NCBI GenBank assembly: GCA_942493365.1
Contig: OW818697.1
Location: 1,634,634-1,698,633 of the forward strand
Length of the DNA stretch: 64,000 nt
Direction of reading: 5' to 3'
Origin: an uncultured Clostridiaceae bacterium
GTDB taxonomy: Bacteria > Bacillota > Clostridia > Saccharofermentanales > UBA5734
Shown here: positions 2,360 to 40,112 of the stretch, piece after piece
Layout of the letters: the number at the start of each line of letters is the position of its first letter
Numbering within the stretch: the stretch's first letter is position 1
The notes under the pieces: model-generated
Seen by the model: the letters and a program-made list of their open reading frames with translations, nothing else
Database searches by the model: none
What the model was told of the DNA's origin: nothing
Program-made: the position numbers and the translations under genes

Positions 2360-2382
2360 AAGATCAATGCAAATAATTGTTA

Positions 2383-2391
2383 TGCTATACT
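2383..2391 (+). promoter_or_regulatory. extended -10 element (TGcTATACT) directly in front of the helicase ATG; possible leaderless mRNA
   Basis: TG at 2383-2384 and TATACT at 2386-2391. Only 7 nt (tttattc) separate it from ATG 2399, with no Shine-Dalgarno in between. Confidence 0.3.
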
Positions 2392-2398
2392 TTTATTC

Positions 2399-4876
2399 AT
2401 GGAAAATGAACACTCGCAAAACACCAACGAACCTCCCCGTCACGCCCTGCGGATCGCCGTGCGCACGTTGGCCGAGACGGTGCATCGCCAAGGCGGGCTG
2501 GCCGGACCGCTCTACAGCGGCGTCAGCTCGGCCGACGGCATCCGGCTGCACCAGCGCTTCGTCAGGTTGCTGGGCGAACGACATCCGGACGCGACGGTCA
2601 CCGCCGAGCTGGCGCTGAACACGCTCTATTCCAGCGCGGAGTTTGACCTGCAAATCAGCGGTCGCTGTGATGCTTTGCTGCAGTTGAATGATGATATCTG
2701 CCTGATCGAAGCCAAATCCTTCACCGGCCCCGCCGACCGTTTGCCGCGCGAGGGTGAGCCGACGCATTGGGCGCAGGCCAAACTTTATGCCTGGCTTTTT
2801 TTGGAAACGCGCCCGGAGCTCCGACAGCTGTCGGTCGGTCTGGCCTATTTGTCTTTGGAATCCGCCGATGCTGTTGAAATGCAGCGTTTGCAGACGCGAG
2901 AAGAACTGTCAGCCTTTTTTCTCGAAACCTGCCGCGTCTATCTGGACTTCACTGGTGACCTGTTGAAAAGCAAGCTGCGCCGCGACCAGAGCGGGCTGGA
3001 CTGCCGCTTCCCCTACCCCGATCTGCGTGCTGGTCAGAAGCAGTTCATGCGCGAAGTCATCGGGGCGGCCCGGCAGAAAAGCGCTGTATTTATCCAAGCG
3101 CCGACCGGCACCGGCAAAACGATGGCGGCGCTTTATCCCGCGGTCAAGGCCGTGGCCAATCATTTGGCTGATCATTGCTTTTACCTGACCGCCATGACCT
3201 CGACGCGCCTGGTGGCGCTGCGCGCGCTTGAAGATTTGCAGAAAGCCGGACTGCTGATGAAGGGCGTCGTGCTTTATGCCAAGGAAAAACTTTGTCTGGA
3301 ACCTGAACTGTATTGCGACAGCCGTCAGTGTTCATTCGCGACATCTTATTACGATCATCTGCCGGCAGCGCTGCGTGAGCTGTTTTTGCTGGAAAACGTC
3401 AGCCGGGATGAAGTCCTGACTTGCGCCAAAAAGCACAAAGTCTGTCCGTTCGAGCTGTCGTTGGACATTGCGTTGTACTGCGAAATCATCATTTGCGACT
3501 ATAATTATGCTTTTGACCCCCGTATCAAGCTGGACCGCTTCTTTGGCAGCGATGCCCGCACCCAGCTGCTGCTGATCGACGAGGCACACAACCTGCCGGC
3601 GCGCTCGCGGGAGATGTTCAGTGCCGCCCTGGACAGCGACAGCCTTCTCGCAGCGCTGGCAGCTATTGACGGACTGTCGCCGCAGCTGACGCAGTCATTG
3701 GGCATCCTGCAAGGCTACATGGCACGTCTGGCCCAGGAACTGTCCGGCAACGAGCCCGGTATCGATCGGGTCGAAAAGGGCATCACCCGCAATGCCGTCA
3801 TGATCGCTGACAATTTTCGCGCCACCCGCGAATTGCCGGCGACCCTGCTGGCCATGCTCGGGCGCTTTTCATACCTTTGCCGTCAGTTTCTCGATCAGCA
3901 CGCGGACTTTCCAGGTCGGCGAAAGCTGCTGGATTTCTATTTCAGCGGTTTATACTTCAGCCGCGTGGTTGAAGAGTTTTTTGACCTGACCTATGTGACG
4001 ACGTTTCAGCTGGTCGGCCGCAAGCTGTCGATTCAAATGCTCTGCCTGGACGCCGCCGAAAAGCTGGCCCGAACATACCGCAGTCTGCATGCCGCAGCTT
4101 TTTTCTCAGCCACGCTGTCACCGATCAATTACTATGTCGGCCTGCTGCACGGCAGCAGCCAAACCGCGCAGCCACAGACGCTGCTGCTGGGGTCACCCTT
4201 CCCGCCCGAAAACCTCCTGGTCATGGTCTGCAGCAATCTGTCGACCCGCTTCAAACAGCGGCAGGAGACCGTGCAGCCAATTTTGCAGATGATCCTGCAG
4301 GCCGTTGGCCAGCGAACGGCCAACTATCTGGTTTATGTGCCTTCCTTTGCCTACCTGTCGATGCTGCGCGGGTTGATCCGGGTGGCGCCGGAACACGCGG
4401 AAATTGACTGGATGTTTCAGCAGTCGGACATGAGCGAGTCGCTGCGCCGCAAGTTTCTCAACCGTTTTGAGACGTTTGGTCAGAAAACCCTCGTTGCTGT
4501 CGCCGTCATGGGCGGCGTCTTTTCCGAAGGCATCGATCTGGTCGGTGAAAAGCTGGCCGGCGTTGTCGTCGTCGGTGTCGGCTTGCCGCAGATCAGTCCC
4601 GAACGCGAAATCATGAAGCAATACTATGCCGAGTCGCTGGGCAGCGGCTATGAATACGCCTACGTCTATCCGGGGTTCAACAAAGTCCAGCAGGCCGCAG
4701 GCCGCGTCATTCGCACCGAAAACGATCGCGGTTTCATCCTGCTGATCGATGACCGCTTTGCCACGCCGGAATACGTCAGCCTCTTTCCAAACGAATGGCA
4801 GCCGGTCGCGGTTGCCGACCCCGCCGAATTGTCAGAGCATCTCAACGAATTCTGGGATCAGGTTGCAGGCCCTTGA
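2399..4876 (+). CDS. DinG/XPD(Rad3)-family ATP-dependent DNA helicase with an N-terminal PD-(D/E)XK-like nuclease domain
   Basis: Walker A QAPTGTGKT and DEAH box LLIDEAHNL. A Cys-rich insertion (KLCLEPELYCDSRQCSF...KVCPFE) is consistent with the XPD-type 4Fe-4S domain. C-terminal motifs are GVFSEGIDL and QAAGRVIRTENDRG. The N-terminal ~190 aa carry GRCDALL...ICLIEAKS (D...ExK). Confidence 0.85.
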   Translation: MENEHSQNTNEPPRHALRIAVRTLAETVHRQGGLAGPLYSGVSSADGIRLHQRFVRLLGERHPDATVTAELALNTLYSSAEFDLQISGRCDALLQLNDDICLIEAKSFTGPADRLPREGEPTHWAQAKLYAWLFLETRPELRQLSVGLAYLSLESADAVEMQRLQTREELSAFFLETCRVYLDFTGDLLKSKLRRDQSGLDCRFPYPDLRAGQKQFMREVIGAARQKSAVFIQAPTGTGKTMAALYPAVKAVANHLADHCFYLTAMTSTRLVALRALEDLQKAGLLMKGVVLYAKEKLCLEPELYCDSRQCSFATSYYDHLPAALRELFLLENVSRDEVLTCAKKHKVCPFELSLDIALYCEIIICDYNYAFDPRIKLDRFFGSDARTQLLLIDEAHNLPARSREMFSAALDSDSLLAALAAIDGLSPQLTQSLGILQGYMARLAQELSGNEPGIDRVEKGITRNAVMIADNFRATRELPATLLAMLGRFSYLCRQFLDQHADFPGRRKLLDFYFSGLYFSRVVEEFFDLTYVTTFQLVGRKLSIQMLCLDAAEKLARTYRSLHAAAFFSATLSPINYYVGLLHGSSQTAQPQTLLLGSPFPPENLLVMVCSNLSTRFKQRQETVQPILQMILQAVGQRTANYLVYVPSFAYLSMLRGLIRVAPEHAEIDWMFQQSDMSESLRRKFLNRFETFGQKTLVAVAVMGGVFSEGIDLVGEKLAGVVVVGVGLPQISPEREIMKQYYAESLGSGYEYAYVYPGFNKVQQAAGRVIRTENDRGFILLIDDRFATPEYVSLFPNEWQPVAVADPAELSEHLNEFWDQVAGP

Positions 4877-5631
4877 ATCGAAAGTGCTTCGAGGTCTTTG
4901 AGCAAATTGAGCCGCGAATAGGACTTCTCCATTTGGTGGGTCAGATAACGATCGGATAAATTGATAAAATCGCGGCGGGCTTCCGGACTGAGCCGACAAT
5001 TGAACAGCCTTTCCAGCGGAGCGTCCAAGGCATGTTGCAGGCTGGCCAATGCGCCTGCTGATAAGGTCGATGAATCGCCTGTTTTTTGTCGACAGCCCGG
5101 TCGATCGCAAAGGGTGCCGCAGGCCTTGATGCTGAAACGTGCGTTTTCACCGATCGCCTCGCCGCATTGGACGCAAAGGTCCACGCAGGGGGAAAAGCCG
5201 ATTACAGCCAAAAGACGCATCTGCGCCAGATGAACGGTCAGCAGCGGATCAGGTAACGCTTGCAGGGCTTGCAGACTGAAGGCCCAAAGCCGATAAACAT
5301 CCGGCTGTGCAGCCGCGTCGCGCGTGGCGTCGAGCAGAACCTCGGCCAGATGAGCCGCGCAGACCAGGCGGTCGAGATCCTGCTGCAGCTGGGAAAAGGA
5401 CTCGATCAATTCAGCGCCGTTTACTGTGTAATGGCCTTTGTTGACAAACAGCTCAAATTCGCTGAGGGCAAAGATCTGGGTTGTCATCAGCAATTGGCTG
5501 CGCGTCCGCCGCGCGCCGCGCGCCGAAGCGCTGATCAGGCCGTAATCGGCCGTCAGAATATTGATGATGCGGTCGGCTTCACCGACGGGCACTTCACGGA
5601 TGACAAAGCCCTTGAGTTTTAGATGCGGCAT
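4858..5631 (-). CDS. recO: DNA repair protein RecO
   Basis: MPHLKLKGFVIREVPVGEADRIINILTADYGLISASARGARR plus a C-terminal Cys cluster (CVQCG...C..C). The start is trimmed to ATG 5631, because the longer ORF would overlap era. The position downstream of era is conserved. Confidence 0.9.
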   Translation of the reverse strand: MPHLKLKGFVIREVPVGEADRIINILTADYGLISASARGARRTRSQLLMTTQIFALSEFELFVNKGHYTVNGAELIESFSQLQQDLDRLVCAAHLAEVLLDATRDAAAQPDVYRLWAFSLQALQALPDPLLTVHLAQMRLLAVIGFSPCVDLCVQCGEAIGENARFSIKACGTLCDRPGCRQKTGDSSTLSAGALASLQHALDAPLERLFNCRLSPEARRDFINLSDRYLTHQMEKSYSRLNLLKDLEALSIQGPAT

Positions 5632-5644
5632 GCAAGCACCTGTC

Positions 5645-6607
5645 TCATTTCTTGATTTCGTAGCCCAAATTACGCAGGATACCCGTTCGATTGCGCCAGT
5701 CTTCCCTGACCTTGACATGCAGTTCGAGATAGCAGCGGCAATTCAGCAGCGACTCGATTTGGATGCGGGCACCCGTGCCGATGTTGACGAGTTTTGATCC
5801 ACCCTTGCCGATCAGAATGCCTTTGTGTGAATCTTTATCGCAATAGATCGAAGCGCTGATTCGCACCAGATCACGTTCAATGTCAGCATCTTCCTCGATC
5901 GGTTGGCCATCGGCCATCTCTTCAAAGGATTCGACCTCGACCGCTGTGCCGTGCGGAATTTCCTCGCTGGTCATCAGCAGGATCTGCTCGCGGATCAGTT
6001 CGGCGCAGATCGAACGCTCGGTTTGATCGGTGACACTGTCGACCGGAAAATAGCGCGGACCTTCGGGTAACAGGCTCTGGATGACCTTGATCAGTTCGGG
6101 TACGCCATCGCCGGTTCTGGCCGAGACCGGAATCAGCGCGGCAAAATTGTAGGCGGCCGCATAATCGGTCAGCAGCGGCAGCAAGGCTTCCTTGACCGTA
6201 TGGTCGACTTTGTTCAAAACCAGAATGACTGGTTTGTTCAGCTTGGCCGCTTTTTCCAATATGCCCGCTTCGATCTTGGGTACGCCGCGGCCGGTTCTCG
6301 ATTCGGTCGCGCCTTCAGCGTCAATCAGCAAGAGAATAATATCCCCATCGGCCAACGCGGTGGCGGCGCAGGACATCATGTACTCACCCAGTTGGGTGCG
6401 CGGCTGATGCAGACCAGGGGTGTCGAGAAAAATGATCTGACTGTTCTCGTCATCGACAACCGCCCGGACAACCTGGCGTGTTGTCTGAGCCTTGGGCGAG
6501 GTTATGGCCAACCGGATGCCGGCGAGCCTGTTGAGCAGGGTCGATTTACCGACATTGGGGCGGCCAATCAGGCTGACAAAACCTGATCTGAAGTTAGGTG
6601 TGTTCAT
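5645..6607 (-). CDS. era: GTPase Era
   Basis: FVSLIGRPNVGKSTLLN (G1), DTPG (G3), NKVD (G4) and a C-terminal KH domain. Confidence 0.95.
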   Translation of the reverse strand: MNTPNFRSGFVSLIGRPNVGKSTLLNRLAGIRLAITSPKAQTTRQVVRAVVDDENSQIIFLDTPGLHQPRTQLGEYMMSCAATALADGDIILLLIDAEGATESRTGRGVPKIEAGILEKAAKLNKPVILVLNKVDHTVKEALLPLLTDYAAAYNFAALIPVSARTGDGVPELIKVIQSLLPEGPRYFPVDSVTDQTERSICAELIREQILLMTSEEIPHGTAVEVESFEEMADGQPIEEDADIERDLVRISASIYCDKDSHKGILIGKGGSKLVNIGTGARIQIESLLNCRCYLELHVKVREDWRNRTGILRNLGYEIKK

Positions 6608-7134
6608 TTTTGTGCTCCTCTTCCCAGACCCAATTGGTCCAGGATTGCTTTTTGTTTGCGTAACATTGCTTTTTCTTCGTTTTCATCGATGTGGTCGTAC
6701 CCGACCAGATGCAGCAGGCCATGAACCATTAAAAAGGCGATTTCCCGTGCCGGCGAGTGTCCGTAAGCCTCAGCCTGGCTGAAGACGCGATCCAGTGAGA
6801 CAACAATGTCGCCAAGCAGCACAGTTGGCTGCTCCGGATGGTCCGGATCAAAATCTTCGACGCCGGGTACCTTGATCAGCTGGCCTTCTGCGGCATCCAG
6901 CATCGGAAAGGACAGGACGTCGGTCAGGCTGTCGACCTGGCGCGTCTCGCGATTAATTCGCCGCATGATGCGCGGCCCGGCAAAGGTGACTGTCACCGAG
7001 GTGTCAATGTCCAGCCGTTTGAATTGGCGGCCGATCAGGGTGGCATTCAGGGCTGCTGGCAGTGCGCGGCTGATCAATTGGCGCCATTCGGCGACCGGAT
7101 ATTTACTCTGCTGATTGACGTATTGGACGATCAT
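6604..7134 (-). CDS. ybeY: rRNA maturation endoribonuclease YbeY
   Basis: Zinc-binding motif HGLLHLVGYDH. ATGA overlap with era. Confidence 0.9.
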   Translation of the reverse strand: MIVQYVNQQSKYPVAEWRQLISRALPAALNATLIGRQFKRLDIDTSVTVTFAGPRIMRRINRETRQVDSLTDVLSFPMLDAAEGQLIKVPGVEDFDPDHPEQPTVLLGDIVVSLDRVFSQAEAYGHSPAREIAFLMVHGLLHLVGYDHIDENEEKAMLRKQKAILDQLGLGRGAQK

Positions 7135-10891: not shown

Positions 10892-11661
10892 GGCGCAACG
10901 ACCTCCAGCCTGTCAATGTATTTTTCGATATTATCGGCCTCAGCAAAGGCCGGGATTACGATACGATCAGATTTTTCGTAGCTAATTTTGATCATGTTGG
11001 TCGCTTGTCTGGTGTTGAAGTCCTGATCGTTAAAAACTGCCGTTGCCAGGGCCTCTGGATCGCCAAGGGCGATGATGACGTATGGCGGACTCAATCGTTC
11101 CTGGTTGCAGCGAATGGTCAGGCCGATGCAGTCAATGTTGGACGCATTGGTGAACCGGTTGCCGTTGATGGAAAATGCCGCTGCGCCGGCGCCATTGAGC
11201 AGCTCAAGGGCATGTCGCACATTGAAATCATGGACAATCATATCCGGCAATTCAAAATCGTCCAGAATCAGGATCAGGCCGGGCCCGCTAACCTCAGTCA
11301 AGCCTGCCAATATCCTGGCCTTTTCCAATTCGGCCTGCAGTTCGCCTTGGCCTGAATTGATCAGCAGTTGGTCAATCATCGCCGTCTTTTGCAGCGTAAG
11401 TTTTGCGTTTTCATCTTGCAAGGCCTGAAAATGCGACTGATACTCGGCCAAATTCTGCTGCCGTTGTTCAAAAAGCTCGACCAGATTGCGATTGGGATTA
11501 TCCGCGCGCACCGTCATGATGTGACTCATCAGAATAATACCGAAGCCCAGCATCAGCACGAACATCAGGAATTTTTGCTGGAAACGCTGGCTGGAAAAAT
11601 ACTGGCTGAGATATGGTTGCCAATCTTTCTTGACGCGCGGGTTTTTTCCCAGGCGGTTCAT
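10888..11661 (-). CDS. DUF881 domain membrane protein (paralogue of the downstream gene)
   Basis: TM segment plus coiled coil, then VSGPGLILILDD...FSINGNRF, typical of DUF881. ATGA overlap with the next gene. Confidence 0.7.
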   Translation of the reverse strand: MNRLGKNPRVKKDWQPYLSQYFSSQRFQQKFLMFVLMLGFGIILMSHIMTVRADNPNRNLVELFEQRQQNLAEYQSHFQALQDENAKLTLQKTAMIDQLLINSGQGELQAELEKARILAGLTEVSGPGLILILDDFELPDMIVHDFNVRHALELLNGAGAAAFSINGNRFTNASNIDCIGLTIRCNQERLSPPYVIIALGDPEALATAVFNDQDFNTRQATNMIKISYEKSDRIVIPAFAEADNIEKYIDRLEVVAP

Positions 11662-17324: not shown

Positions 17325-19097
17325 TCATTGTTCCAAAACGCTGTCAGGGTAGATTTCCCGTCGGTGATAATAGGTATGCAGCAGTTCATGCGCCAGATGG
17401 CCGTTGGCTTCGCCGAGAAAATCCTTGTAGAGAGCCGCGACATCGGGGTTCTTGTGCGATTTTCTTTCGGTTTGAACCAGATCTTCATCATAGAGCGCTT
17501 TGGCGCGCAGGGTGCGGATGTCGATATCCATCAGATCCTGCGCGTGAATCTGGGGTTGTCCGCCGCCGCAAACGCAGCCGCCCGAGCAGCCCATGATCTC
17601 AATGAAGTGATACTGCGGTGCCGTGCCGGCCTTGATGGCGTCCAGCAATTTGCGGGCGGCAGCCGTACTATGGGCGACCGCGGCCCGGATGGTGATGCCG
17701 CCCAGAACGACCTCGGCTTCTTTGATGCCCGCGTCAACGCCGCGTACAACTTTGTACTCCAGCTGGGGCAGATCTTTGCCTTCAAGAATGTCGGCCACCG
17801 TGCGCAGCGCGGCTTCCATAACACCACCGGTCGCGCCAAAGATAACGCCCGCGCCGGTGTATTCGCCGATCAGGTCCTGATCGGGTCCTTCGTCAGGCAG
17901 CTTGTTGAAATCAATGCCGGCCTGTTTGATCATGCGGGCGATTTCGCGGGTGGTCAGGACATAATCGACATCGCGGCATCCCGTCGCCGGATTGAACATT
18001 TCTTCGCGCGACGATTCGGTCTTTTTCGAGGTGCAGGGCATGATCGAAACGACCACAATATCTTTGGGGTCAATGCCCTTGCGCTTGGCGTAATACGTTT
18101 TGATGATGGCGCCTTCCATCTGGTGTGGTGATTTGCAGGTCGAGAGATTATCGAGAAATTCCGGGTAGTAAAATTCGGCGAAGCGAATCCAGCCAGGCGA
18201 ACAGGAGGTGATCATGGGCAGTTTGCCACCGTTTTGAATGCGGCCGAGCAACTCGGTGCCTTCCTCCATGATCGTCAGGTCGGCGGCGAAATTGGTGTCG
18301 TAAACCCGGCTGAAACCCATTCGCCGCAGGGCGGCAAACATCTTGCCGGTCACGCGTGTCCCGATGGGCTGACCGAATTCCTCACCCAGGGCAGCTCGCA
18401 CGGCCGGCGCGACCTGAACCACGACGTGCTTTTTCGGGTTGTTGATGGCCGTCCAGACATTTTCGGTTTCTTCACGTTCGTGCAACGCGCCGACCGGGCA
18501 GGCAATAATGCACTGGCCGCAGTAGATGCAGGGGGCGTCGGCCATGCTGATGTCGAAGGCCGGCCCGACGGCCGTGTCGAAACCGCGGTTGATGAAGGAC
18601 AGCACGTTGACATCCTGTTTTTGGCAAGCCGAAACGCAGCGGCCGCAGAGGATGCATTTGCCCGAGTCGCGGACGATTGACCAGGATTTGTCATCCAGTT
18701 TGGATGGGCTTTTATCGCCCTTGAAGTTGTATTCACGGATGCTGTAAAGCTCGCACAGATCCTGAAGTTCGCAGTTTTGGTTGCGGATGCAGGACAGGCA
18801 ATCTTTGTTGTGGTCGGACAGGATCAGCTCCAGCGTCGATTTACGCGTGGCGCGCACCCGGGGCGAATTGGTCTTGACGATCATGCCTTCGGCGACCGGG
18901 TTGACACAGGCGGCAGCCAGCGAGCGACCGCCGACAACCTCAACCAGGCAAACACGGCAGGCGCCAACTTCATTGATACCCTTCAGGTAGCAGAGTGTCG
19001 GAATCTTGATGCCGGCGGTGCGGGCTGCCTCGAGAATTGTCTTGTTGGCCGGCACACTGATCTGAACACCATCGATGGTTATATTAACATTATTCAA
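17325..19097 (-). CDS. hydA: [FeFe] hydrogenase catalytic subunit (NADH-dependent/bifurcating HydA type)
   Basis: N-terminal 2Fe-2S ferredoxin-like fold (ITIDGVQISV...CRVCLVEV), several CxxCxxC clusters, and H-cluster motifs (TSCSPGW, MPCTSKK, EIMGCSGGCVCGGG). Confidence 0.9.
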   Translation of the reverse strand: MNNVNITIDGVQISVPANKTILEAARTAGIKIPTLCYLKGINEVGACRVCLVEVVGGRSLAAACVNPVAEGMIVKTNSPRVRATRKSTLELILSDHNKDCLSCIRNQNCELQDLCELYSIREYNFKGDKSPSKLDDKSWSIVRDSGKCILCGRCVSACQKQDVNVLSFINRGFDTAVGPAFDISMADAPCIYCGQCIIACPVGALHEREETENVWTAINNPKKHVVVQVAPAVRAALGEEFGQPIGTRVTGKMFAALRRMGFSRVYDTNFAADLTIMEEGTELLGRIQNGGKLPMITSCSPGWIRFAEFYYPEFLDNLSTCKSPHQMEGAIIKTYYAKRKGIDPKDIVVVSIMPCTSKKTESSREEMFNPATGCRDVDYVLTTREIARMIKQAGIDFNKLPDEGPDQDLIGEYTGAGVIFGATGGVMEAALRTVADILEGKDLPQLEYKVVRGVDAGIKEAEVVLGGITIRAAVAHSTAAARKLLDAIKAGTAPQYHFIEIMGCSGGCVCGGGQPQIHAQDLMDIDIRTLRAKALYDEDLVQTERKSHKNPDVAALYKDFLGEANGHLAHELLHTYYHRREIYPDSVLEQ

Positions 19098-19123
19098 TGG
19101 AAATCACGCTCCTTTTGACCACT

Positions 19124-20926
19124 TCACTTTTTGATGACGGCCTTGAATTTGCAGGTCTGCTCACAGGCCCCGCAGCGAATGCATTGGCTGGCATCGATGA
19201 CAAACGGTTCTTTGCCCAGGACGCCGCTGATGCAATCCACTGGGCATCGTTTGGCGCAAAGTCCGCATTTGCGGCAGTTTTCCGGGATAATCATGTAGGT
19301 CAGAAGCGCTTTACAGACGCCGCAGCTGCATTTGTGCTCGATAACATGCTCATCGTACTCGTGGCGGAAATGCTTGAGGGTCGAGAGCACCGGATTGGGC
19401 GCCGTTTGGCCGAGCGCGCAGAGCGAGCCTTCTTTGATGGCCGTGGCCAGGCGCTCAAGTTCGCTGACATCTTCGGGCACACCGTTGCCGGACGTGATCT
19501 TCTGCAGGATTTCCAGCATGCGGTGGGTGCCAATGCGGCAGGGCGCGCATTTGCCGCAGGACTCGTCGACGGTGAATTCGAGAAAGAACTTGGCAATGTC
19601 AACCATGCAGGTGGTTTCATCCATGACGATCATGCCGCCCGAGCCCATCATCGAGCCGGCCGCGATCAGGTTGTCGTAGTCAATCGGCACATCCAAGAGC
19701 GACGCTGGCAGGCAGCCGCCGGACGGACCGCCGGTCTGAACCGCTTTGTAGGCTTTGCCGTTGGGAATGCCGCCGCCGATGTCAAATACAATTTCGCGCA
19801 CGGTTGTGCCCATCGGGATCTCGACCAGGCCAACATTATTGACCTTGCCGCCCAGCGCGAATACCTTGGTGCCTTTGCTTTTTTCGGTGCCCAGGCTGGC
19901 AAACCACTCGGCCCCTTTCTGGAAGATGACCGGGATGTTGGCGAAGGTCTCGACGTTGTTGAGAATGGTCGGTTTGTCAAAAAGACCCTTGACCGCCGGG
20001 AAGGGCGGCCGCGGGGTCGGGTTGCCGCGCTTGCCCTCGATGGAACGCATCAGGGCGGTTTCTTCGCCGCAGACAAAGGCGCCGGCGCCAAGTCGAATTT
20101 CGATGTCAAAACAAAAATCGCTGGCAAAAATATTTTTGCCCAGCATACCGAAATCACGCGCCTGATTGATGGCCAGTTGCAAGCGTTTGACGGCAATCGG
20201 GTATTCGGCGCGCACATAGGCATAGCCTTGGCTGGCGCCTATGGCATAGCCGGCGATGGCCATCGCTTCGACGATGCTGTGCGGATCACCCTCGAGGACA
20301 GCGCGATCCATAAAGGCACCAGGGTCACCTTCATCGGCGTTGCAGCAGACATATTTCTGGTCACTGACCTGCTTGGCGGCAAATTCCCATTTCAGGCCGG
20401 TCGGAAAACCACCGCCGCCACGACCACGCAGGCCGGACATTTTAACAACATTGACAATTTCACTGGGGGGTATCTTTTCGGTCAATATTTTACCGAGGGA
20501 AAGATACCCATCCTGCGCAATGTATTCTTCAATCGATTCGGGGTTGATGATGCCGCAATTGCGGAGGGCAATGCGTAGCTGCTTTTTGAAAAAGTCTGAC
20601 TCATTGACATTTTTAGCCTGATCGAGCGGAATGCTGGTGGCGACGGTCATCAGGCGCTTGACGGGACGGCCTTTGAGCAGATGTTCGCCGACTATTTCCC
20701 GGGCATCGTCTGGCTTGACTTGATAATAGATGACGCCTTCAGGATAGACCACCATGATCGGGCCTTCGGCACAGAGACCGAAACAGCCGGTCTTGACAAC
20801 CTTGACCTCATTGGCAAGTCCTTGAGCGGTCAATTCCTGCTCTAATAATTCAATGATTTTGAGTGATTGACTGGATGTACAGCCGGTGCCGCAACAAACG
20901 AGGACATGGGATCGATAAAAGTCCAT
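19124..20926 (-). CDS. hydB: NuoF-like NADH-binding FMN/Fe-S subunit of the hydrogenase (HydB)
   Basis: GRGGGGFPTGLKW, a YVCCNADEGDPGAF-like motif, ESCGKCAPCR and C-terminal 2x[4Fe-4S]. The start is trimmed to ATG 20926, 4 nt after the hydC stop. Confidence 0.9.
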   Translation of the reverse strand: MDFYRSHVLVCCGTGCTSSQSLKIIELLEQELTAQGLANEVKVVKTGCFGLCAEGPIMVVYPEGVIYYQVKPDDAREIVGEHLLKGRPVKRLMTVATSIPLDQAKNVNESDFFKKQLRIALRNCGIINPESIEEYIAQDGYLSLGKILTEKIPPSEIVNVVKMSGLRGRGGGGFPTGLKWEFAAKQVSDQKYVCCNADEGDPGAFMDRAVLEGDPHSIVEAMAIAGYAIGASQGYAYVRAEYPIAVKRLQLAINQARDFGMLGKNIFASDFCFDIEIRLGAGAFVCGEETALMRSIEGKRGNPTPRPPFPAVKGLFDKPTILNNVETFANIPVIFQKGAEWFASLGTEKSKGTKVFALGGKVNNVGLVEIPMGTTVREIVFDIGGGIPNGKAYKAVQTGGPSGGCLPASLLDVPIDYDNLIAAGSMMGSGGMIVMDETTCMVDIAKFFLEFTVDESCGKCAPCRIGTHRMLEILQKITSGNGVPEDVSELERLATAIKEGSLCALGQTAPNPVLSTLKHFRHEYDEHVIEHKCSCGVCKALLTYMIIPENCRKCGLCAKRCPVDCISGVLGKEPFVIDASQCIRCGACEQTCKFKAVIKK

Positions 20927-20930
20927 ACGG

Positions 20931-21422
20931 TCATGCCTCCTTGTATTTTTCCAGGATCGCTGGGATTTCATCGGCAGTCAGGCGGCCGTAGACATCCTCA
21001 TTGATCATCATGACCGGTGCGAGTCCGCAAGCCCCGATACAGCGGCAGGCATTGATGGAAAATTTCATATCCGGGGTGCATTCACCGGGCTTGATGCCTA
21101 AAATATCTTGCACTTTATCCAGAATCGCTTGGGCGCCTTTGACATAACAGGCGGTTCCCATGCAGACGCTGACCACGTTCTCGCCTTTGGGATTGATCGA
21201 AAAGAATGAATAAAATGATACAACTCCATAGACTTCAGCGACGGAAACACCGAGACCGAAGGCAACTTCACGCTGAACTTCCAAAGGCAGGTACCCATAA
21301 ACGCCCTGTGCTTCCTGAAGAACCTGCATCATGGCTTTACGGCCTTCCTTGCCGTGACGTTCGATGACCAGCTTGAGCTGATCCATCTTTTCGTCATGAG
21401 TCAATTGATTCATAGTTTGCAT
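20931..21422 (-). CDS. hydC: NuoE-like 2Fe-2S subunit of the hydrogenase (HydC)
   Basis: Thioredoxin-like 2Fe-2S pattern VCMGTACYVKG...CRCIGACGLAP. The start is set to ATG 21422, after GGGAGGTGA. Confidence 0.85.
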   Translation of the reverse strand: MQTMNQLTHDEKMDQLKLVIERHGKEGRKAMMQVLQEAQGVYGYLPLEVQREVAFGLGVSVAEVYGVVSFYSFFSINPKGENVVSVCMGTACYVKGAQAILDKVQDILGIKPGECTPDMKFSINACRCIGACGLAPVMMINEDVYGRLTADEIPAILEKYKEA

Positions 21423-21567
21423 GGTTTGACTCACCTCCCAATTGTATACAATATCACGATTTGTTAACAACATCAACATCTTCGTTAAATGTTTATCAAT
21501 AAATCATAAATGGTTTTTTCTCTGATTACTAGTATAATACTGAAATAGATGATTTTGGAGGCTGATT

Positions 21568-33689: not shown

Positions 33690-35042
33690 ATGAAATTATG
33701 CAAGTTCGGGGGATCATCGCTCGCCAATGCCGAGCAGATCCGCAAAGTATGCGATATTATGCTCAGTGATCCGGATCGTCGGATCATGGTTGTTTCCGCC
33801 CCTGGCAAACGCACACGTGAGGACACCAAGGTCACCGACCTGCTCATTACGCTGGCCAATGCCCGCATCAACGGCAATAACGGCTGCGGTGAGCTGCAGG
33901 CCGTCGTCTCGCGTTTCGCCGTCATCGCCGATGATCTGGGCTTGTCATCAGCATGTATGACCGCCATTGAGGATGACCTGACGGCTCGCACCAATGCTGA
34001 CTGCTCCAATGCCATGAAATACATGGATTCACTCAAAGCCGCCGGCGAAGACAACTGCGCCCGTCTGGTCGCCGATTACCTCAAAAGTCTGGGTCGCGAC
34101 GCAGCCTACTTCAACCCACAGGCGGCCGGCCTGTTGCTGACCGAAGAATACGGCAATGCGCAGGTTTTGCCCGAGTCCTACGACAACCTGGCCAAGCTGG
34201 CCGATTACCCTGGGCTGGTCATCTTCCCGGGCTTTTTTGGCTACACCAGGCAGGGCGAAGTCGTCACCTTTTCCCGCGGCGGCTCTGACATCACCGGTTC
34301 AATCCTGGCCGCAGCCACCAACGCTGACGTCTATGAGAACTGGACCGATGTTGATTCGGTGTATGCCGTCAATCCTGCGCTGGTCAACAACCCGCACCCG
34401 ATCAATGAAATTACGTATGACGAAATGCGCGAGCTTGCTTATGCCGGCTTTACGGTACTGCACGAAGAAGCCTTGGCGCCGGCCTTTCGCAAGGGCATTC
34501 CGGTCAATATTCGCAACACCAACAATCCGACAGCTCGCGGCACGATGATCGTCCGCCAGCGCTTCAATTTCGAGGGCGTCGTCACCGGCATCGCCGGCGC
34601 CAAAGGCTTTTGCACCCTGACCATGAGCAAGTATCTGATGAACCGTGAGATCGGCTTTGCGCTGAAGATTCTGCAGATTCTGGCCGACGAAGGCATCCCC
34701 TTCGAGCACATGCCTTCCGGCATTGATTCGCTGTCGATTGTCATGCGCAAAGAAGTCTTCCCGCTGGACAAGCAGGAGATCGTCATGAAGCGGTTGGTCG
34801 ATGAACTGGGTATTGAAAAAATCTCCGTCGATCGCAGTCTGGCCATCGTCATGATCGTCGGCGAAGCCATGGCGCGGACGGTCGGCGTCACGGCGCGGGC
34901 CTGTAATTCGCTGTCCAAAGCCGGCGTCAATCTGGAGATCATCAACCAGGGTTCGTCCGAGATCAGCGTCATGTTTGGCGTTCGCGAGGAGTACTGCAAT
35001 TATGCTGTCAAGGAACTCTACAAGGAGTTCTTCCAGCGCTAA
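33690..35042 (+). CDS. aspartate kinase
   Basis: MKLCKFGGSSLANAEQIRKV and VVSAPGKRT form the amino-acid-kinase fold. The C-terminal ACT repeats include IVMIVGEAM. Confidence 0.9.
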   Translation: MKLCKFGGSSLANAEQIRKVCDIMLSDPDRRIMVVSAPGKRTREDTKVTDLLITLANARINGNNGCGELQAVVSRFAVIADDLGLSSACMTAIEDDLTARTNADCSNAMKYMDSLKAAGEDNCARLVADYLKSLGRDAAYFNPQAAGLLLTEEYGNAQVLPESYDNLAKLADYPGLVIFPGFFGYTRQGEVVTFSRGGSDITGSILAAATNADVYENWTDVDSVYAVNPALVNNPHPINEITYDEMRELAYAGFTVLHEEALAPAFRKGIPVNIRNTNNPTARGTMIVRQRFNFEGVVTGIAGAKGFCTLTMSKYLMNREIGFALKILQILADEGIPFEHMPSGIDSLSIVMRKEVFPLDKQEIVMKRLVDELGIEKISVDRSLAIVMIVGEAMARTVGVTARACNSLSKAGVNLEIINQGSSEISVMFGVREEYCNYAVKELYKEFFQR

Positions 35043-35221
35043 AACCCGCGTTCTGTCGATATTCGATATCGTATATCGTTACAAATACCATTTCGTAACC
35101 CATCCTTCGTGTGCTCGCGTTGGGGTGGCTTATATTTGGCGCAATTGTAACGTGTGATATCGCAAAATACGTGAATCAATTGTAATTTGAAAGCATCAAT
35201 AATCATCAGGAGGAAAGTGAA

Positions 35222-36001
35222 ATGGAAACAAATCTGTTGAAATTGAAACGTTTTAACCTGATTATGGGCTTCTTTCATCTGATCCAGGGTATCGCGATGC
35301 TTTTTCTGGCCACAACGGTCATCCAGAAAATTGCGGCGTTTCAGCCGACCATTGTGCAGAATTTTCTAAAATTCGATGTGGCCAGCAAGACGCTGGTTCC
35401 CGATACCAAAGTCTTGTTCGACCTGCCCTTCGGCATTCTGGTCGCTTCATTTTTACTGATCTCAGCCGCCGCTCACGCTTTAATCGTCATCAAAAGCGAC
35501 AAGTATCTGGCTGATATCCAAAGGGGTATCAACAAGTATCGCTGGTTTGAATACGCCATCAGTTCATCGATCATGATCGTCCTGATTTCGACCTTGTTTG
35601 GCATCTATGACATCGCGACGCTGGTTGTCATTTTCATCGCCAACGCGACCATGAACCTCTTTGGTTTGGTCATGGAGCAGCTCAATTCTGGCGTCGATAA
35701 GAAGAACGTCAACTGGGGTCCTTTCATTTGGGGATCGATTGCCGGCCTGGCGCCCTGGATTGCCATCCTCTTGTATATGTTCGGCAACGGCAATTTTGAC
35801 AGAACACCCTGGTTTGTCTGGGCCATCGTCGGCACCTACTTTGTCGCGTTTTGTACCTTCCCGATCAACATGATCCTCCAGTACAAAGGCATCGGCAAAT
35901 GGAAAAATTACGCTTATGGTGAGCGGACCTACATCGTGCTGAGCCTGGTCGCCAAATCGCTTCTGGCCTGGCTGGTGCTCTTTGGGGCGATGCAGCCTTA
36001 A
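35222..36001 (+). CDS. heliorhodopsin (retinal-binding 7TM protein)
   Basis: 259 aa with seven hydrophobic helices. FNLIMGFFHLIQG, SAAAHALIV, YRWFEYAISSSIMIVLI and GERTYIVLSLVAKSLLAW closely parallel the remembered HeR-48C12 segments (GVFHLLQ, FHFIV, RWVEYSLSSSVMIVLI, GERAYIVLSLVAKSALAW). The TM7 Lys is K245 (35954-35956). An AGGAGGA RBS precedes the ATG. Confidence 0.85.
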   Translation: METNLLKLKRFNLIMGFFHLIQGIAMLFLATTVIQKIAAFQPTIVQNFLKFDVASKTLVPDTKVLFDLPFGILVASFLLISAAAHALIVIKSDKYLADIQRGINKYRWFEYAISSSIMIVLISTLFGIYDIATLVVIFIANATMNLFGLVMEQLNSGVDKKNVNWGPFIWGSIAGLAPWIAILLYMFGNGNFDRTPWFVWAIVGTYFVAFCTFPINMILQYKGIGKWKNYAYGERTYIVLSLVAKSLLAWLVLFGAMQP

Positions 36002-36014
36002 TGGCAGGTTAGTG

Positions 36015-36956
36015 ATGAATCAGGCATTTTTCAAAGGACGGCACAAGCACAAGCGCTATTTTGAGGGCTGGTATTTTAAGTGTATCAGCGCGGATCGGCA
36101 GCATGCCATCGCCATCATCCCGGGCATGGCCATCGATCCCCTGGGCAACAAACATGCCTTTATTCAGGTGATCAACGCGGTCAATGGCAAAACGGCGTAT
36201 CACCATTTCCCCTATGCCGACTTCGCCTCGCCAACCGATCGGTTTGCCATCCGCATTGGCAGCAACACCTTTGCCGATCAGGGCTTATCCTTGGCCATCG
36301 ACTCACCGGAGGGCCAAATCAAAGGCTCGCTGATATTTTCCAATATCCATGCTTTCCCTGTTTCACGCTTGAATCCCGGTATCATGGGACCCTTTACCTT
36401 TGTGCCGATTATGGAATGCTACCACGCGATTATTCATCTCGATCACGCCATTTCAGGTACGATCGAACTGGATGGTGAGCTGATGGATTTTAACGGTGGG
36501 GCTGGCTACATCGAAAAGGATTACGGCCGTTCATTTCCGCGCACCTACCTTTGGCTGCAGGCCAGCCATTTTGATTCGAGTCATGCCTCATTTGTTTTCT
36601 CGCAGGCGCGGATCCCCCTGCTCGGTCGGGAATTCCCTGGATTTTTCGCCTATTTCACAGATTTTGCCGGCCAAACCGTGCGCTTTGCGACCTACAATCG
36701 CTCGCGGCTGGAAAACTGGCAGGTCGATCCCATCGCCCGCACCTGCTCGGGACTGCTGCGCGGACCGCAAGGCAGCCTGACTTTTGCGGCAAAAATGATC
36801 GGCGGCGGCAAGCTACGAGCGCCGGTCGACGGCCTGATGGATCGCGAAATCATCGAAAGCATCACGGCGATCGTCAACCTTCGGCTGACCGATCGGCAGG
36901 GGCGGGTTATCTTTGCCGGAACCAGCACCGAAGCGGGTATGGAGATCAGTTGCTGA
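36015..36956 (+). CDS. tocopherol cyclase family protein
   Basis: KRYFEGWYFK and MECYHAIIHLDHAISGTIELDGELMDFNGGAGYIEKDYGRSFPRTYLWLQASHF parallel plant VTE1 ([63 protein letters not shown]). The ATG is 13 nt after the heliorhodopsin stop (the ORF-track start 35982 is probably too long). Confidence 0.8.
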   Translation: MNQAFFKGRHKHKRYFEGWYFKCISADRQHAIAIIPGMAIDPLGNKHAFIQVINAVNGKTAYHHFPYADFASPTDRFAIRIGSNTFADQGLSLAIDSPEGQIKGSLIFSNIHAFPVSRLNPGIMGPFTFVPIMECYHAIIHLDHAISGTIELDGELMDFNGGAGYIEKDYGRSFPRTYLWLQASHFDSSHASFVFSQARIPLLGREFPGFFAYFTDFAGQTVRFATYNRSRLENWQVDPIARTCSGLLRGPQGSLTFAAKMIGGGKLRAPVDGLMDREIIESITAIVNLRLTDRQGRVIFAGTSTEAGMEISC

Positions 36957-38196
36957 CCTGTTCGAGTCGGTAGATCTGACCGTTGAGGTCTACAACCCGC
37001 AGTTCGCCGGCCGCGTCTACGCCAAAAGACGCGATGTTAATCGCCGAATCAAGAATCATGGTATTGTGCGCCAACCCGTCTTCGTCGATCCAGAGCGACC
37101 AAAGCCGGCCCGATACGTAATCGCCATAGATGTAAGTTGCCTTGAGCAGCGGCGATTGTGTGCCGGCGTAGACATAGCCGCCGGTGATCGATTCGTCTGG
37201 CGCATGCGGGTATTCCCACACCGGCGGAATCATATCCGCCAAATTGAGGCCGGGAACATCTTTGTAGGCATGCAGCCCCTCTAAAGCGCTCCAGCCATAA
37301 TTGCCGCCCTTGACAATCAGATCGACCTCTTCATAGAGACTCTGTCCGACATCCGCTGCCCACAGGCGGCCACTTGCGTCAAAGCTGAAACGCCAGGGGT
37401 TGCGCAGCCCAAAGGCGTATATTTCTTCGCGGTATCCCTGCGTATTGCCGACGAAGGGATTGTCTACCGGTATGCTGAAAGGCTGGCTGCTCTCCGATGG
37501 ATGAACGTCGATGCGCAGGATTTTGCCCAGCAGCGTGGTCAGATTCTGACCATTGTTCTGAGGGTCGCCCCCGGACCCACCATCGCCGACGGCAATATAC
37601 AGGTAGCCGTCCGGCCCAAAGGCCAGGCATCCGCCATTGTGGTTTTCGTAGGGCTGGGCAAAGGTCAGCAGGACTTTTTCGCTGGCCGGGTCGGCGGCCA
37701 ATGGATTTGTCGCGCTCCGGGTCAGTCGTGAGATGACCGTCCCGGCGCTGTTGGTGTAATTAACATAAATAAAACCGTTGCTTTTATAATCGGGATCAAA
37801 CGCCAGTCCCAAGAGGCCCTGTTCACCGCCGCCGGAACGCACACGATCGGTTAGATCCAGAAAAACATCCGCGGTGGTGGTATCAGCCTGATCGACAAAT
37901 ATTTTGATTCGACCTGCCCTTTCCACGACAAAGGCGTATTGGCTTAAAGCATCGACAACGCCAAAATACAGCGGCTGATTGAAGGTCAGATTGGGGTAGG
38001 CATTAACCAGGCTGAAGGTGCCTGTTTCCGGCGCGGGTGTCGGTGTCGGCGCTGGCGTCGGCGTCGGTGTCGGCGGTGCCGTCGTTGTTATTGTTGGAAC
38101 CACCGATGTTTGCTGGCTCGTCAGCGTCGCGCCCTGGCAGGCTGTCAATGCTGAAAGTGTGATGATCATCAACAGAATAAAATGCAACTTTTTCAT
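36946..38196 (-). CDS. PQQ-dependent sugar (glucose/sorbosone) dehydrogenase-like beta-propeller lipoprotein
   Basis: Lipobox LSALTAC, a Thr/Pro linker, then FAQPYENHNGGCLAFGPDGYLYIAVGDGG...FGLRNPWRFSFD, typical of the soluble PQQ sugar dehydrogenase family. There is an 11-nt convergent overlap with the cyclase gene. Confidence 0.8.
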   Translation of the reverse strand: MKKLHFILLMIITLSALTACQGATLTSQQTSVVPTITTTAPPTPTPTPAPTPTPAPETGTFSLVNAYPNLTFNQPLYFGVVDALSQYAFVVERAGRIKIFVDQADTTTADVFLDLTDRVRSGGGEQGLLGLAFDPDYKSNGFIYVNYTNSAGTVISRLTRSATNPLAADPASEKVLLTFAQPYENHNGGCLAFGPDGYLYIAVGDGGSGGDPQNNGQNLTTLLGKILRIDVHPSESSQPFSIPVDNPFVGNTQGYREEIYAFGLRNPWRFSFDASGRLWAADVGQSLYEEVDLIVKGGNYGWSALEGLHAYKDVPGLNLADMIPPVWEYPHAPDESITGGYVYAGTQSPLLKATYIYGDYVSGRLWSLWIDEDGLAHNTMILDSAINIASFGVDAAGELRVVDLNGQIYRLEQVSN

Positions 38197-38225: not shown

Positions 38226-40112
38226 TTAAGGTCTCCCCGCCTGATCATAGACCCTGCTGACTTTGAACAGCCGATCCAGTTTGTAGGTTGCGCTGTTGCG
38301 CATGGTATAGCCATTGACTGGCGTTTTGTCGACATAAATGTAATTGCTGCCGGGGTACATGTAAGCTGTCGTGCCGAGGCCGCCGAACAGAATAAAGCCC
38401 TGGTTTTGCAGCCAGATCGACCGTTCGTCCGCGCCCGTTAAAAATGAACCGTTCGGATAATTCAAAAAAGCCACCGGACCAGTCAGCGCGCCAACTTGAG
38501 CCAGCCATTTGCCGGTGTCGGCCTGAATGCGTTCCAGGCTCTGGTTGCGGGCGTCAATAAAACCGTAAGTTGATGAGGCAAAAAGCCAGCCCGTGTTTTT
38601 CAAACGGTTGATGATGGTTTGCACGGCCGCTTTGTTTTCGGCAATCTGCGCCGACGACAGGCTGATCGGCGCAAACCCATTGTCCTGCAAGGCCGCATTG
38701 CGATCATCCAGCTGATCCTCCTCCGTCACCTGACCGAAAATGCATTCATAGCCGGTCAGCGAAATCGTGCCTTTGGCGCCATCGTGCGAAAAGTCAGGGT
38801 GGGCGCTGACAAACAAGTCGAGGATGCCAATGGCCTCACCTTGACGATCGACGGTCATCTGCCCGCTGCTGTTTTGGTATTCGGCGCTGACTTCGCCCCC
38901 TTCATCCAGCACCAAATCCCAGGCGTTGCCGGTTTGGCGGCGCGAGGCATAATAGTTGAGCCCCTCAATGACCAGCACCAACGGTTTTTTGCCTTCCGGC
39001 AGCTCGAGCTGGGCGACACGCCGATCACTGGTGTAGATGCGGCTGGAATCAATCAGGATGTAATTGTTGGCATATAACTCAGCCAGCATGGCGCTGAATT
39101 CCCCGGTTGTCATCATCGAATCGTTGGCGGCATCGGCATAGCTGTCGCCGTCAAAAGCGGCAGCATTGTTGTTAATCAACGGTTTGATGCTGATCAATTC
39201 GATGCGCCCGTTGTAGGGCAGCAAAACAGCCGGCAGGTGCGTCGCGCATGCCGTCAGATCAGCCTGAATAACAGTGTCTTCGGTGTAAACAGCGGCCATT
39301 TTCTGCAGCGCCTTTTGCGCCGAAAGAAAGCGCCCGCCAGCCATCAGCGCTTGCGCCTCGTCGAGCAATGGCCGATACATTTCCGTCCGGCATTCGTCCA
39401 TGCGCAGACGAGCCTGGTCGTGGACATAGCCTGCCAGCTCAGCGTGGTCAAGGATCGTCGCAAAGCCGGCCCAGGCCGCCCAATAATGGTCCGCCTCAAA
39501 ATCAGCCATCGCCGTCATCATCATGGCCTGACCGCCCGTCATGCGCTCAAATTCACTGGGCAGTTCGCCGATGGCATCCTGCAGATTGGGCAACGTTGCC
39601 AGCTGGCTAAAAGCGTTTTCCAGGATAGGCAAACTGGTTTTGCCTTGCAGATAATCCTGACACAAGCCGCGCAAAAATGCGATCAGTCGAACCGCGGAGA
39701 CTTCGGCCATTTTTTCAGCGAAGGTCAATTCGTTGTTGTTGAGCGTCATTTGATCCAGCAGATGGTTTTCGATCGATGCCAACTGCGCATTGGTAACCGC
39801 TTCCATTTCTGCCAGGGCGTGCTGAAAGTTTTTCTGCTGCTGATCGAGCAAGCCCGACGTCAGCGCATTGCCCTGCGTCAGGCGATAAATGGCAATCGCG
39901 TCGTCATAGCGGTTTTCAGTCATGGCCAGTTTAAAGTCCTTGAGGACCGCGTCAGTTCGCTGATCGCCGGTCACGATGTAAAGACCGACAATGACAGCCA
40001 CGGTCAAGGCCACCGCAAGCAGAATGATCAGCAGGCGGCGCACCACGGGATTGCCGGTTTGTTCGTCGCGAATGTAGACCGTCTTGGCCATGTCAGGACT
40101 CTTCCAGGCCAA
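38226..40112 (-). CDS. membrane-anchored protein of unknown function (helical-repeat region plus ~300-aa C-terminal extracytoplasmic domain)
   Basis: One N-terminal TM segment (LLIILLAVALTVAVIVGLYIV). I recognise no catalytic motif. The C-terminal part vaguely recalls divergent polysaccharide-deacetylase-like proteins. The alternative start ATG 40091 would remove the overlap with parC. Confidence 0.5.
   Translation of the reverse strand: MAWKSPDMAKTVYIRDEQTGNPVVRRLLIILLAVALTVAVIVGLYIVTGDQRTDAVLKDFKLAMTENRYDDAIAIYRLTQGNALTSGLLDQQQKNFQHALAEMEAVTNAQLASIENHLLDQMTLNNNELTFAEKMAEVSAVRLIAFLRGLCQDYLQGKTSLPILENAFSQLATLPNLQDAIGELPSEFERMTGGQAMMMTAMADFEADHYWAAWAGFATILDHAELAGYVHDQARLRMDECRTEMYRPLLDEAQALMAGGRFLSAQKALQKMAAVYTEDTVIQADLTACATHLPAVLLPYNGRIELISIKPLINNNAAAFDGDSYADAANDSMMTTGEFSAMLAELYANNYILIDSSRIYTSDRRVAQLELPEGKKPLVLVIEGLNYYASRRQTGNAWDLVLDEGGEVSAEYQNSSGQMTVDRQGEAIGILDLFVSAHPDFSHDGAKGTISLTGYECIFGQVTEEDQLDDRNAALQDNGFAPISLSSAQIAENKAAVQTIINRLKNTGWLFASSTYGFIDARNQSLERIQADTGKWLAQVGALTGPVAFLNYPNGSFLTGADERSIWLQNQGFILFGGLGTTAYMYPGSNYIYVDKTPVNGYTMRNSATYKLDRLFKVSRVYDQAGRP

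Follow-up and report, generated by a model that had tools for sequence, protein, structure and literature searches.

Why should a heliorhodopsin gene and a gene for an enzyme of the tocopherol cyclase family lie 13 nucleotides (nt) apart in a bacterium of the Clostridia, and does the pairing have a function? We addressed this question for a 64,000-nt stretch of DNA (hereafter the window) from an uncultured Clostridiaceae bacterium (assembly GCA_942493365.1, contig OW818697.1, positions 1,634,634 to 1,698,633), in which a heliorhodopsin (HeR) gene is followed on the same strand by a gene of the Tocopherol_cycl family, here called the cyclase gene. Heliorhodopsins are widespread and few have an assigned cellular role, while bacterial tocopherol-cyclase-like proteins number in the thousands across hundreds of species, none with a known function. 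We found that HeR-Tocopherol_cycl adjacency recurs independently and more often than expected by chance, and we put the probability that the pair is a co-expressed light and photo-oxidative-stress module at roughly one half.

The HeR gene (259 amino acids (aa); + strand) runs from an ATG at 35222 to a TAA at 35999-36001, and after a hairpin-free 13-nt spacer (ATGGCAGGTTAGT; 36002..36014, + strand), whose ribosome-binding site (AGG) is weak, the cyclase gene (313 aa; + strand) extends from an ATG at 36015 to 36956. This start was favoured over an in-frame TTG at 35982 because the N-termini of homologues read M(K/R)NPAFF. Upstream, 179 nt of non-coding sequence (35043..35221, + strand) separate HeR from an aspartate kinase gene (33690..35042, + strand; NCBIfam PRK09034, 607 bits). 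Downstream, the end of the cyclase gene is overlapped by 11 nt by a convergent gene (36946..38196, - strand) for a 416-aa lipoprotein with a beta-propeller of the glucose/sorbosone dehydrogenase (GSDH) type (Pfam PF07995, 146.7 bits). An earlier note on this DNA, written from the letters and their open reading frames (ORFs), had described this arrangement, including the upstream gap, the missing terminator between the two genes and the overlap at the cyclase stop. All of these structural statements were borne out by the ORF list and the sequence; the 13 nt are too short for a terminator, and none was predicted there. Both ORFs are genuine genes with thousands of homologues each.

One sign that the two genes belong together came from their closest relatives. 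The locus holding the closest HeR relative (L083; P0122, 83% identity) and the one holding the closest cyclase relative (L084; P0002, 75%) share one layout, with HeR (83%), a 14-nt unstructured spacer and then the cyclase (75-76%), and the pair is adjacent in all three known members of this window clade. When all called genes of the two loci were compared with the 64-kilobase (kb) window by tblastn, only HeR, the cyclase and the GSDH-type gene found a match, indicating that the pair and the GSDH gene stayed together while the flanks changed. The aspartate kinase has no counterpart in either relative and hence lies outside the unit there; in the window we treat it as context only.

A second and more distant line of evidence was provided by a scan of HeR-centred metagenome contigs, in which one locus (L128) carries a 72%-identical HeR followed by a cyclase that is 34% identical to that of the window. 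Relatives of the L128 cyclase are labelled Acholeplasmataceae, Izemoplasmatales and Peloplasma, and in this Mollicute-like clade a HeR gene lies within 4 kb of the cyclase gene in 5/5 sampled loci (L128, L175-L178). It stands directly upstream on the same strand in three of the five (L128, L175 and L178) and at a distance of 3.5-3.9 kb, once on the opposite strand, in the other two (L176 and L177). In L175 and L178 a photolyase gene (1448-2887 and 3583-4983, respectively) is divergent from HeR, which is then followed by the cyclase; L178 belongs to Peloplasma aerotolerans (GCA_030012175.1), so that the photolyase-HeR-cyclase triad is carried by a cultured organism. A neighbour-joining tree of 90 family members places the two HeR-linked cyclase clades far from each other, with many unlinked clades between them, and the linkage therefore arose at least twice. 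Recurring in L083, L084 and the Mollicute-like clade, the adjacency is not peculiar to one genome. Its repeated origin and the photolyase that joins it in one of the lineages point to a role of this enzyme family in the response to light, which can be tested.

The pairing had been regarded as undescribed in the earlier note, which does not hold. Chazan et al. 2021 (bioRxiv 10.1101/2021.02.16.431466) name tocopherol cyclase among the oxidative-stress-related families found near HeR genes, call it a neighbour typical of Acholeplasmataceae, and tabulate it in their Dataset S3 (row 1120, Firmicutes group B), where 15/220 non-redundant HeRs have a Tocopherol_cycl neighbour. All 15 of these neighbours are co-oriented with HeR and could be co-expressed with it, the median distance being one gene, and by Fisher's test the association has P = 2.0e-28 against the genome background (55 such genes among 110,918) and P = 9.1e-7 against proton-pump neighbourhoods; the counts elsewhere are 1/876 in Actinobacteria A and 2/175 in Chloroflexi B. 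Their HeR set was de-replicated. The neighbourhood survey against chance that had been proposed as a check thus exists already with a positive result, and the question that remains is for this reason biochemical rather than genomic. A full-text literature search returned Chazan et al. 2021 as the one paper linking HeR with tocopherol cyclase; two other neighbourhood studies (PMC8612252 and PMC11109279) do not mention the pairing, and the ten HeR neighbour groups of the latter do not include the family.

The window agrees with the published association in the two Pfam families, in their order, co-orientation and one-gene distance, in the group concerned (Firmicutes including Tenericutes, HeR group B) and in the oxidative-stress interpretation. 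It differs from the published Acholeplasmataceae example in that its lineage belongs to the Clostridia and is richer in guanine and cytosine (53%), and from the Mollicute type in that its cyclase is 34% identical and its spacer is 13 nt long and hairpin-free as opposed to the hairpin-bearing spacers of 43-49 nt. What is known of the pairing is a statistical association, and the window is a further, Clostridia-lineage instance of a catalogued Bacillota linkage.

The identity of the first gene is clear. The protein matched Pfam PF18761 at 313.7 bits (cut-off 26.7; profile positions 1-242 of 242) and the NCBIfam HeR equivalog NF038020 over its full length at 287 bits (cut-off 100), and it could be aligned over its full length with 6IS6, a heliorhodopsin of solved structure (E = 1.8e-53), with the RWFEY and SLVAKS motifs conserved. 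It has H19, H85, E110 (in RWFEY) and K245 (in SLVAKS/LVAKS), of which K245 is the retinal Schiff-base lysine of helix 7 and E110 the counter-ion glutamate of helix 3. The window HeR is a canonical heliorhodopsin. Its clade is unusually conserved, with 75-83% identity to proteins labelled Enterococcus, Jeotgalibaca, Erysipelotrichaceae and a metagenome-assembled genome (MAG) of Thermotogota, and the linked cyclases diverge far more (down to 34% identity). This high conservation suggests that the HeR gene either is under strong constraint or has spread horizontally.

The second protein matched Pfam PF14249 at 61.8 bits (cut-off 26.6), with the best stretch (aa 124-311) falling on profile positions 146-333 of 335, i.e. 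on the C-terminal 60% of the profile; no NCBIfam model matched it. Its homologues number 3655 at E <= 1e-3, and all of those listed carry PF14249. With no signal peptide, no transmembrane segment and a maximal 19-residue Kyte-Doolittle hydropathy of 1.22, the cyclase is predicted to be soluble. An AlphaFold2 model built from a multiple sequence alignment of 52 homologues (predicted local distance difference test score 90.4, predicted template modelling score 0.90) is all-beta and consists of two consecutive barrels. A sequence search of the PDB with the family profile gave nothing at E <= 1. Foldseek matched the model at probability 1.00 to the decalin-forming pericyclases Fsa2, Phm7, CghA and MycB, to AttH (2ICH; E = 1.9e-9), to kievitone hydratase (7A0T; E = 3e-8), which is a prenyl hydratase of the CrtC type, and to 25-phosphosteroid lyase (9FZN), by which the modelled enzyme is assigned an AttH/CrtC-like double-barrel fold. 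None of these fold relatives uses a cofactor, and all of them enclose hydrophobic substrates, be they prenyl compounds, polyenes or steroids. With the AttH/CrtC-type hydratases (NE1406 2ICH and 7A0T) and the fungal pericyclases the model has in common the two-barrel all-beta build (E = 1e-10 to 1e-7, template modelling scores of 0.5-0.6), but sequence identity is just 9-14%, and the likeness is one of fold.

How far the enzyme resembles plant tocopherol cyclases can be judged from its motifs. Both signatures that the earlier note had read in the protein are present, namely YFEGWYFK (aa 15-22, nt 36057-36080) and GYIEKDYGRSFPRTYLWLQ (aa 164-182, nt 36504-36560). The plant and cyanobacterial enzymes carry YxEKNWG followed by FP+xWxW+QxNxF, and bacterial 'tocopherol cyclase-like proteins' are described as being of unknown function (PMC4963081). 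The window cyclase reads YIEKDYG and FPRTYLWLQASHF, a partial match in which Y, E, K, G, FP, one W, Q and F are kept, and N is changed to D, W to Y, the first W to Y and N to S. Many acidic, basic and aromatic residues are invariant in the close subfamily, among them E17, W19, Y20, K22, H137, H144, Y165, E167, K168, W180, Q182, R268 and E281; H141, D169 and R172 count as invariant as well. Like VTE1/SXD1 of plants and slr1737 of Synechocystis (EC 5.5.1.24), the protein belongs to PF14249 and keeps the EK-centred motif and the following FP..W.Q...F motif (PMC4963081), and it likely has oxygen-independent, acid-catalysed chemistry in common with VTE1 and slr1737. Unlike those enzymes it is short (313 aa), has other residues in place of N and W in the plant motif, and comes from a non-photosynthetic anaerobe with no evidence of a tocopherol pathway in 64 kb. 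The label of a true tocopherol cyclase (VTE1/slr1737, EC 5.5.1.24) was not adopted because the motif match is partial.

The nature of the substrate is a separate matter. Neither homogentisate prenyltransferase nor other prenylquinol pathway genes were found within the 64-kb window. Cyclase homologues with 70% identity occur in Acetobacterium wieringae and A. carbinolicum, members of the genus of A. woodii, which is described as having neither quinones nor cytochromes (PMC3315566). These homologues make a prenylquinol substrate doubtful, with the proviso that the absence of quinones is reported for A. woodii and not for A. wieringae or A. carbinolicum themselves. Since the plant catalytic motif is partly kept and homologues occur in this genus, chromanol chemistry for the window cyclase is unproven.

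The host itself can be sketched from the genes around the pair. The window encodes a HydABC-type [FeFe] hydrogenase (an operon with Fe_hyd_lg_C, Complex1_51K and 2Fe-2S thioredoxin-like genes at 17325-21479, - strand), DXS and a polyprenyl synthase, and its closest relatives are Clostridia MAGs, which together indicate that the host is a fermentative anaerobe with a supply of isoprenoid precursors. A light sensor in a fermentative anaerobe is a notable observation in itself.

Beyond HeR, the neighbours of the cyclase family were tallied from 146 immediate neighbours at 77 species loci. The top recurring ones were DNA photolyase (4 loci), patatin-like phospholipase (4) and AhpC/TSA (3). The four photolyase loci (L040, L044, L047 and L078) form one Bacteroidales clade in which the photolyase gene immediately precedes the cyclase gene on the same strand and a HeR gene is lacking (in L078 the photolyase is at 4440-5825 and the cyclase at 6001-6912), and this adjacency ties the cyclase family to light independently of HeR. 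Other contexts hint at a connection with carotenoid glycolipids. In L171, a sister of the window clade, the cyclase gene is directly downstream of genes for a GT2 glycosyltransferase and a PF18927 CrtO acyltransferase (2187-3852; the same type of context in L172 and L174), and CrtO-like genes lie near the cyclase in two Spirochaetota loci (L048, 937-3299; L052, 4525-4968), the first of which also has an amine-oxidase-type flavoprotein gene, a weak match (71.9 bits) with an atypical C-terminal Fer4 domain. A DUF1722 gene is directly upstream of the cyclase in L176 (3227-3955) and near it in two other loci; DUF1722 is the family of E. coli ybgA, which sits beside phr. The counts for these contexts are small, and all of them point to light damage, membrane lipids and possibly carotenoids.

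Taken with the conserved and recurring pair, these contexts suggest how the module might work. HeR and the cyclase would most likely be co-transcribed, driven by the 179-nt region in front of HeR, in a response to light and photo-oxidative damage in which HeR is the light-responsive membrane component. The enzyme would modify a membrane isoprenoid at a C=C bond, by an acid-catalysed addition or ring closure that needs no oxygen. Tocopherol cyclase and CrtC-type hydratases have this chemistry in common, and the product of the enzyme would be a protective lipid. A functional link between HeR and the enzyme, as proposed in the earlier note, is likely because the tight unit is conserved and has recurred independently, and the idea of photo-oxidative stress fits both the published neighbourhood analysis and the position of the cyclase family beside photolyase and AhpC/TSA genes elsewhere.

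In the window, a Shine-Dalgarno sequence (AGGAGG, 35208-35213) precedes HeR, and two exact copies of CAATTGTAA (35142-35150 and 35177-35185), 35 nt apart, lie further 5' of the gene and are not conserved in L083/L084. The 179-nt region is partly alignable with the corresponding region of these relatives, the conserved part surrounding the Shine-Dalgarno sequence. A scan of 35043-35221 for consensus sigma-70-like promoters found no site; the region presumably holds the promoter of the pair, and in L083 and L084 the pair must have a promoter of its own because the gene upstream is divergent. The two genes have the usual marks of an operon, being on one strand with a 13-nt spacer (minimum free energy -1.0 kcal/mol) and no terminator in between, so that a self-contained bicistronic unit is plausible from the sequence. 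As to how self-contained the unit is, the aspartate kinase gene upstream has the same orientation as the pair, and no terminator was detected behind it. No operator or palindrome upstream of HeR was shared by the six paired loci; all that was seen were clear but ordinary TATAAT boxes upstream of HeR in the Mollicute loci.

Several results weigh against the module as described. A species-level genome scan found relatives of the cyclase in at least 565 genomes, from which the 80 best loci were taken with 6 kb on either side, and HeR was found in 0/80 of these by tblastn; a sensitivity check of the negative counts with hidden Markov models (HMMs) rebuilt for both families and run on six-frame translations gave an outcome equal to that of tblastn. 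The HeR-free loci include eight with cyclases 62-70% identical to that of the window, and further cyclases with 70-72% identity are likewise HeR-free (L167, L168-170 and L171-174). In the reciprocal direction, one of 80 HeR-centred metagenome loci has a cyclase gene (L128), 53 of the 80 having at least 900 nt downstream. One genome (GCA_040772725.1, contig JAXGXR010000001.1; L081 and L085) is a case of co-occurrence without adjacency: its HeR (76% identity) and its cyclase (69%) are encoded on a single contig at a distance of about 28 kb, and each of the two genes has unrelated neighbours. The cyclase family is common among HeR-free diderm anaerobes, with many relatives in Bacteroidota, Spirochaetota and other diderms, and in an anaerobic host oxidative stress would be merely occasional. 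Expression in the Mollicute clade also appears not to be simply coupled. The spacers of its three adjacent pairs (L128, 4787-4835; L175, 3957-4000; L178, 5958-6000) are 43-49 nt long and contain a hairpin and U-run of -10 to -16 kcal/mol; these hairpins differ in sequence and are similar in fold, with no room for a promoter afterwards, which suggests a conserved leaky terminator or attenuator with HeR expressed well above the enzyme. The same scans showed that the surroundings of both genes are otherwise highly diverse. None of the window neighbours of the cyclase recurs across the 80 species loci, and clustering of 805 ORFs around the cyclase gave no common partner, the best cluster being present in 7 loci. 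The HeR-cyclase link is real but neither obligate nor general.

The alternative that survives best, to our minds an unlikely one, is a direct partnership in which HeR, once activated by light, would bind the enzyme on the cytoplasmic side of the membrane and act as a switch of its activity. There is precedent for such a mechanism in HeR-partner pairs from the same operon with experimental support, namely AbHeR with glutamine synthetase (PMC9529153), TfHeR with photolyase (PMC9769723) and OcHeR with the OmrDE ABC exporter (PMC11109279). As in the window, these pairs have a non-pumping HeR of sensory or regulatory type encoded beside an enzyme or transporter gene; in contrast to them, the window pair has another partner family. 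The common strand and the 13-14-nt spacing in the window clade would suit co-translation, a soluble cytoplasmic enzyme would need access to the membrane if its substrate is a lipid, and a physical partnership would be in keeping with a pair that has recurred independently. Against this, a comparison of the HeRs of the two cyclase-paired lineages with 48 unpaired close relatives revealed no common residue signature beyond one weak N-terminal column, the genes stand kilobases apart in 2/5 Mollicute loci and once on opposite strands, and most members of the cyclase family work without any HeR. The terminator-like hairpins of the Mollicute clade imply unequal dosage, and the putative leaky terminator argues mildly against a 1:1 HeR-enzyme complex in that lineage.

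We regard it as less probable still that there is no functional coupling at all, the adjacency being neutral synteny passed down inside shallow clades and the enrichment in the published data a product of phylogenetic non-independence. In favour of this view, most relatives of either gene lack the pair, each gene is usually found by itself among highly variable neighbours, and the window clade has only three known members. However, the pair has survived while all flanks other than the GSDH-type gene were rearranged, the linkage arose at least twice with cyclases just 34% identical, it holds in all five Mollicute-clade loci despite their differing arrangement, and the de-replicated published set still gives P = 2e-28.

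A more ambitious proposal, for which we see a slim chance, is that the enzyme is a light-linked, oxygen-independent isoprenoid cyclase or hydratase acting on a carotenoid or retinoid and not on a quinol, which in anaerobes with HeR would either make or tune the chromophore or antenna of HeR or be switched on by HeR. If true, it would give a first function to a family of >5000 bacterial proteins and a new signalling output to heliorhodopsins.

Least likely in our estimation is the narrower version of this idea, in which the enzyme would hydrate or cyclise the psi-end of a carotenoid or retinoid to supply HeR with a chromophore precursor, antenna or quencher in hosts lacking the oxygen-dependent blh route to retinal: the enzyme has its nearest relatives in fold within the AttH/CrtC-type hydratase superfamily (7A0T and 2ICH), the GT2 and PF18927 CrtO genes of L171 are C30-carotenoid glycoside genes with CrtO-like counterparts in the two Spirochaetota loci, blh is rare both near HeR genes and in HeR genomes, from which another, unknown retinal route has been inferred (Chazan et al. 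2021, bioRxiv 10.1101/2021.02.16.431466), and the occurrence of the family in the genus of the quinone-free A. woodii argues against a quinol substrate, but carotenoid-type neighbours were seen in about 3 of ~90 cyclase loci, the amine-oxidase match among them is weak and atypical, the family is abundant in Bacteroidales and Spirochaetota without rhodopsin, and there are no crt genes in the 64-kb window.

Some minor features of the loci complete the description. Photolyase, DegV, DUF2177 and DUF1295 genes were sought in the window; no photolyase was found there, and DUF1295, a family reported near HeR genes, was found only in the relative L084, about 5 kb from the pair at the edge of the locus (10923-10945). 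Directly beyond the GSDH-type gene of the window lies a 628-aa ORF (38226-40112, - strand) without a Pfam or NCBIfam match. The GSDH-type gene, whose product resembles PQQ glucose/sorbosone dehydrogenases, is the only further gene linked to the pair in the window clade (3/3 members) and is absent from the Mollicute-clade loci; its copies in the relatives (L083, 8127-9392; L084, 9223-10482; both - strand; 73% aa identity) are convergent with the pair and lie 1.4-3.3 kb downstream of it, and the gene may be either a third member of the unit or residual synteny.

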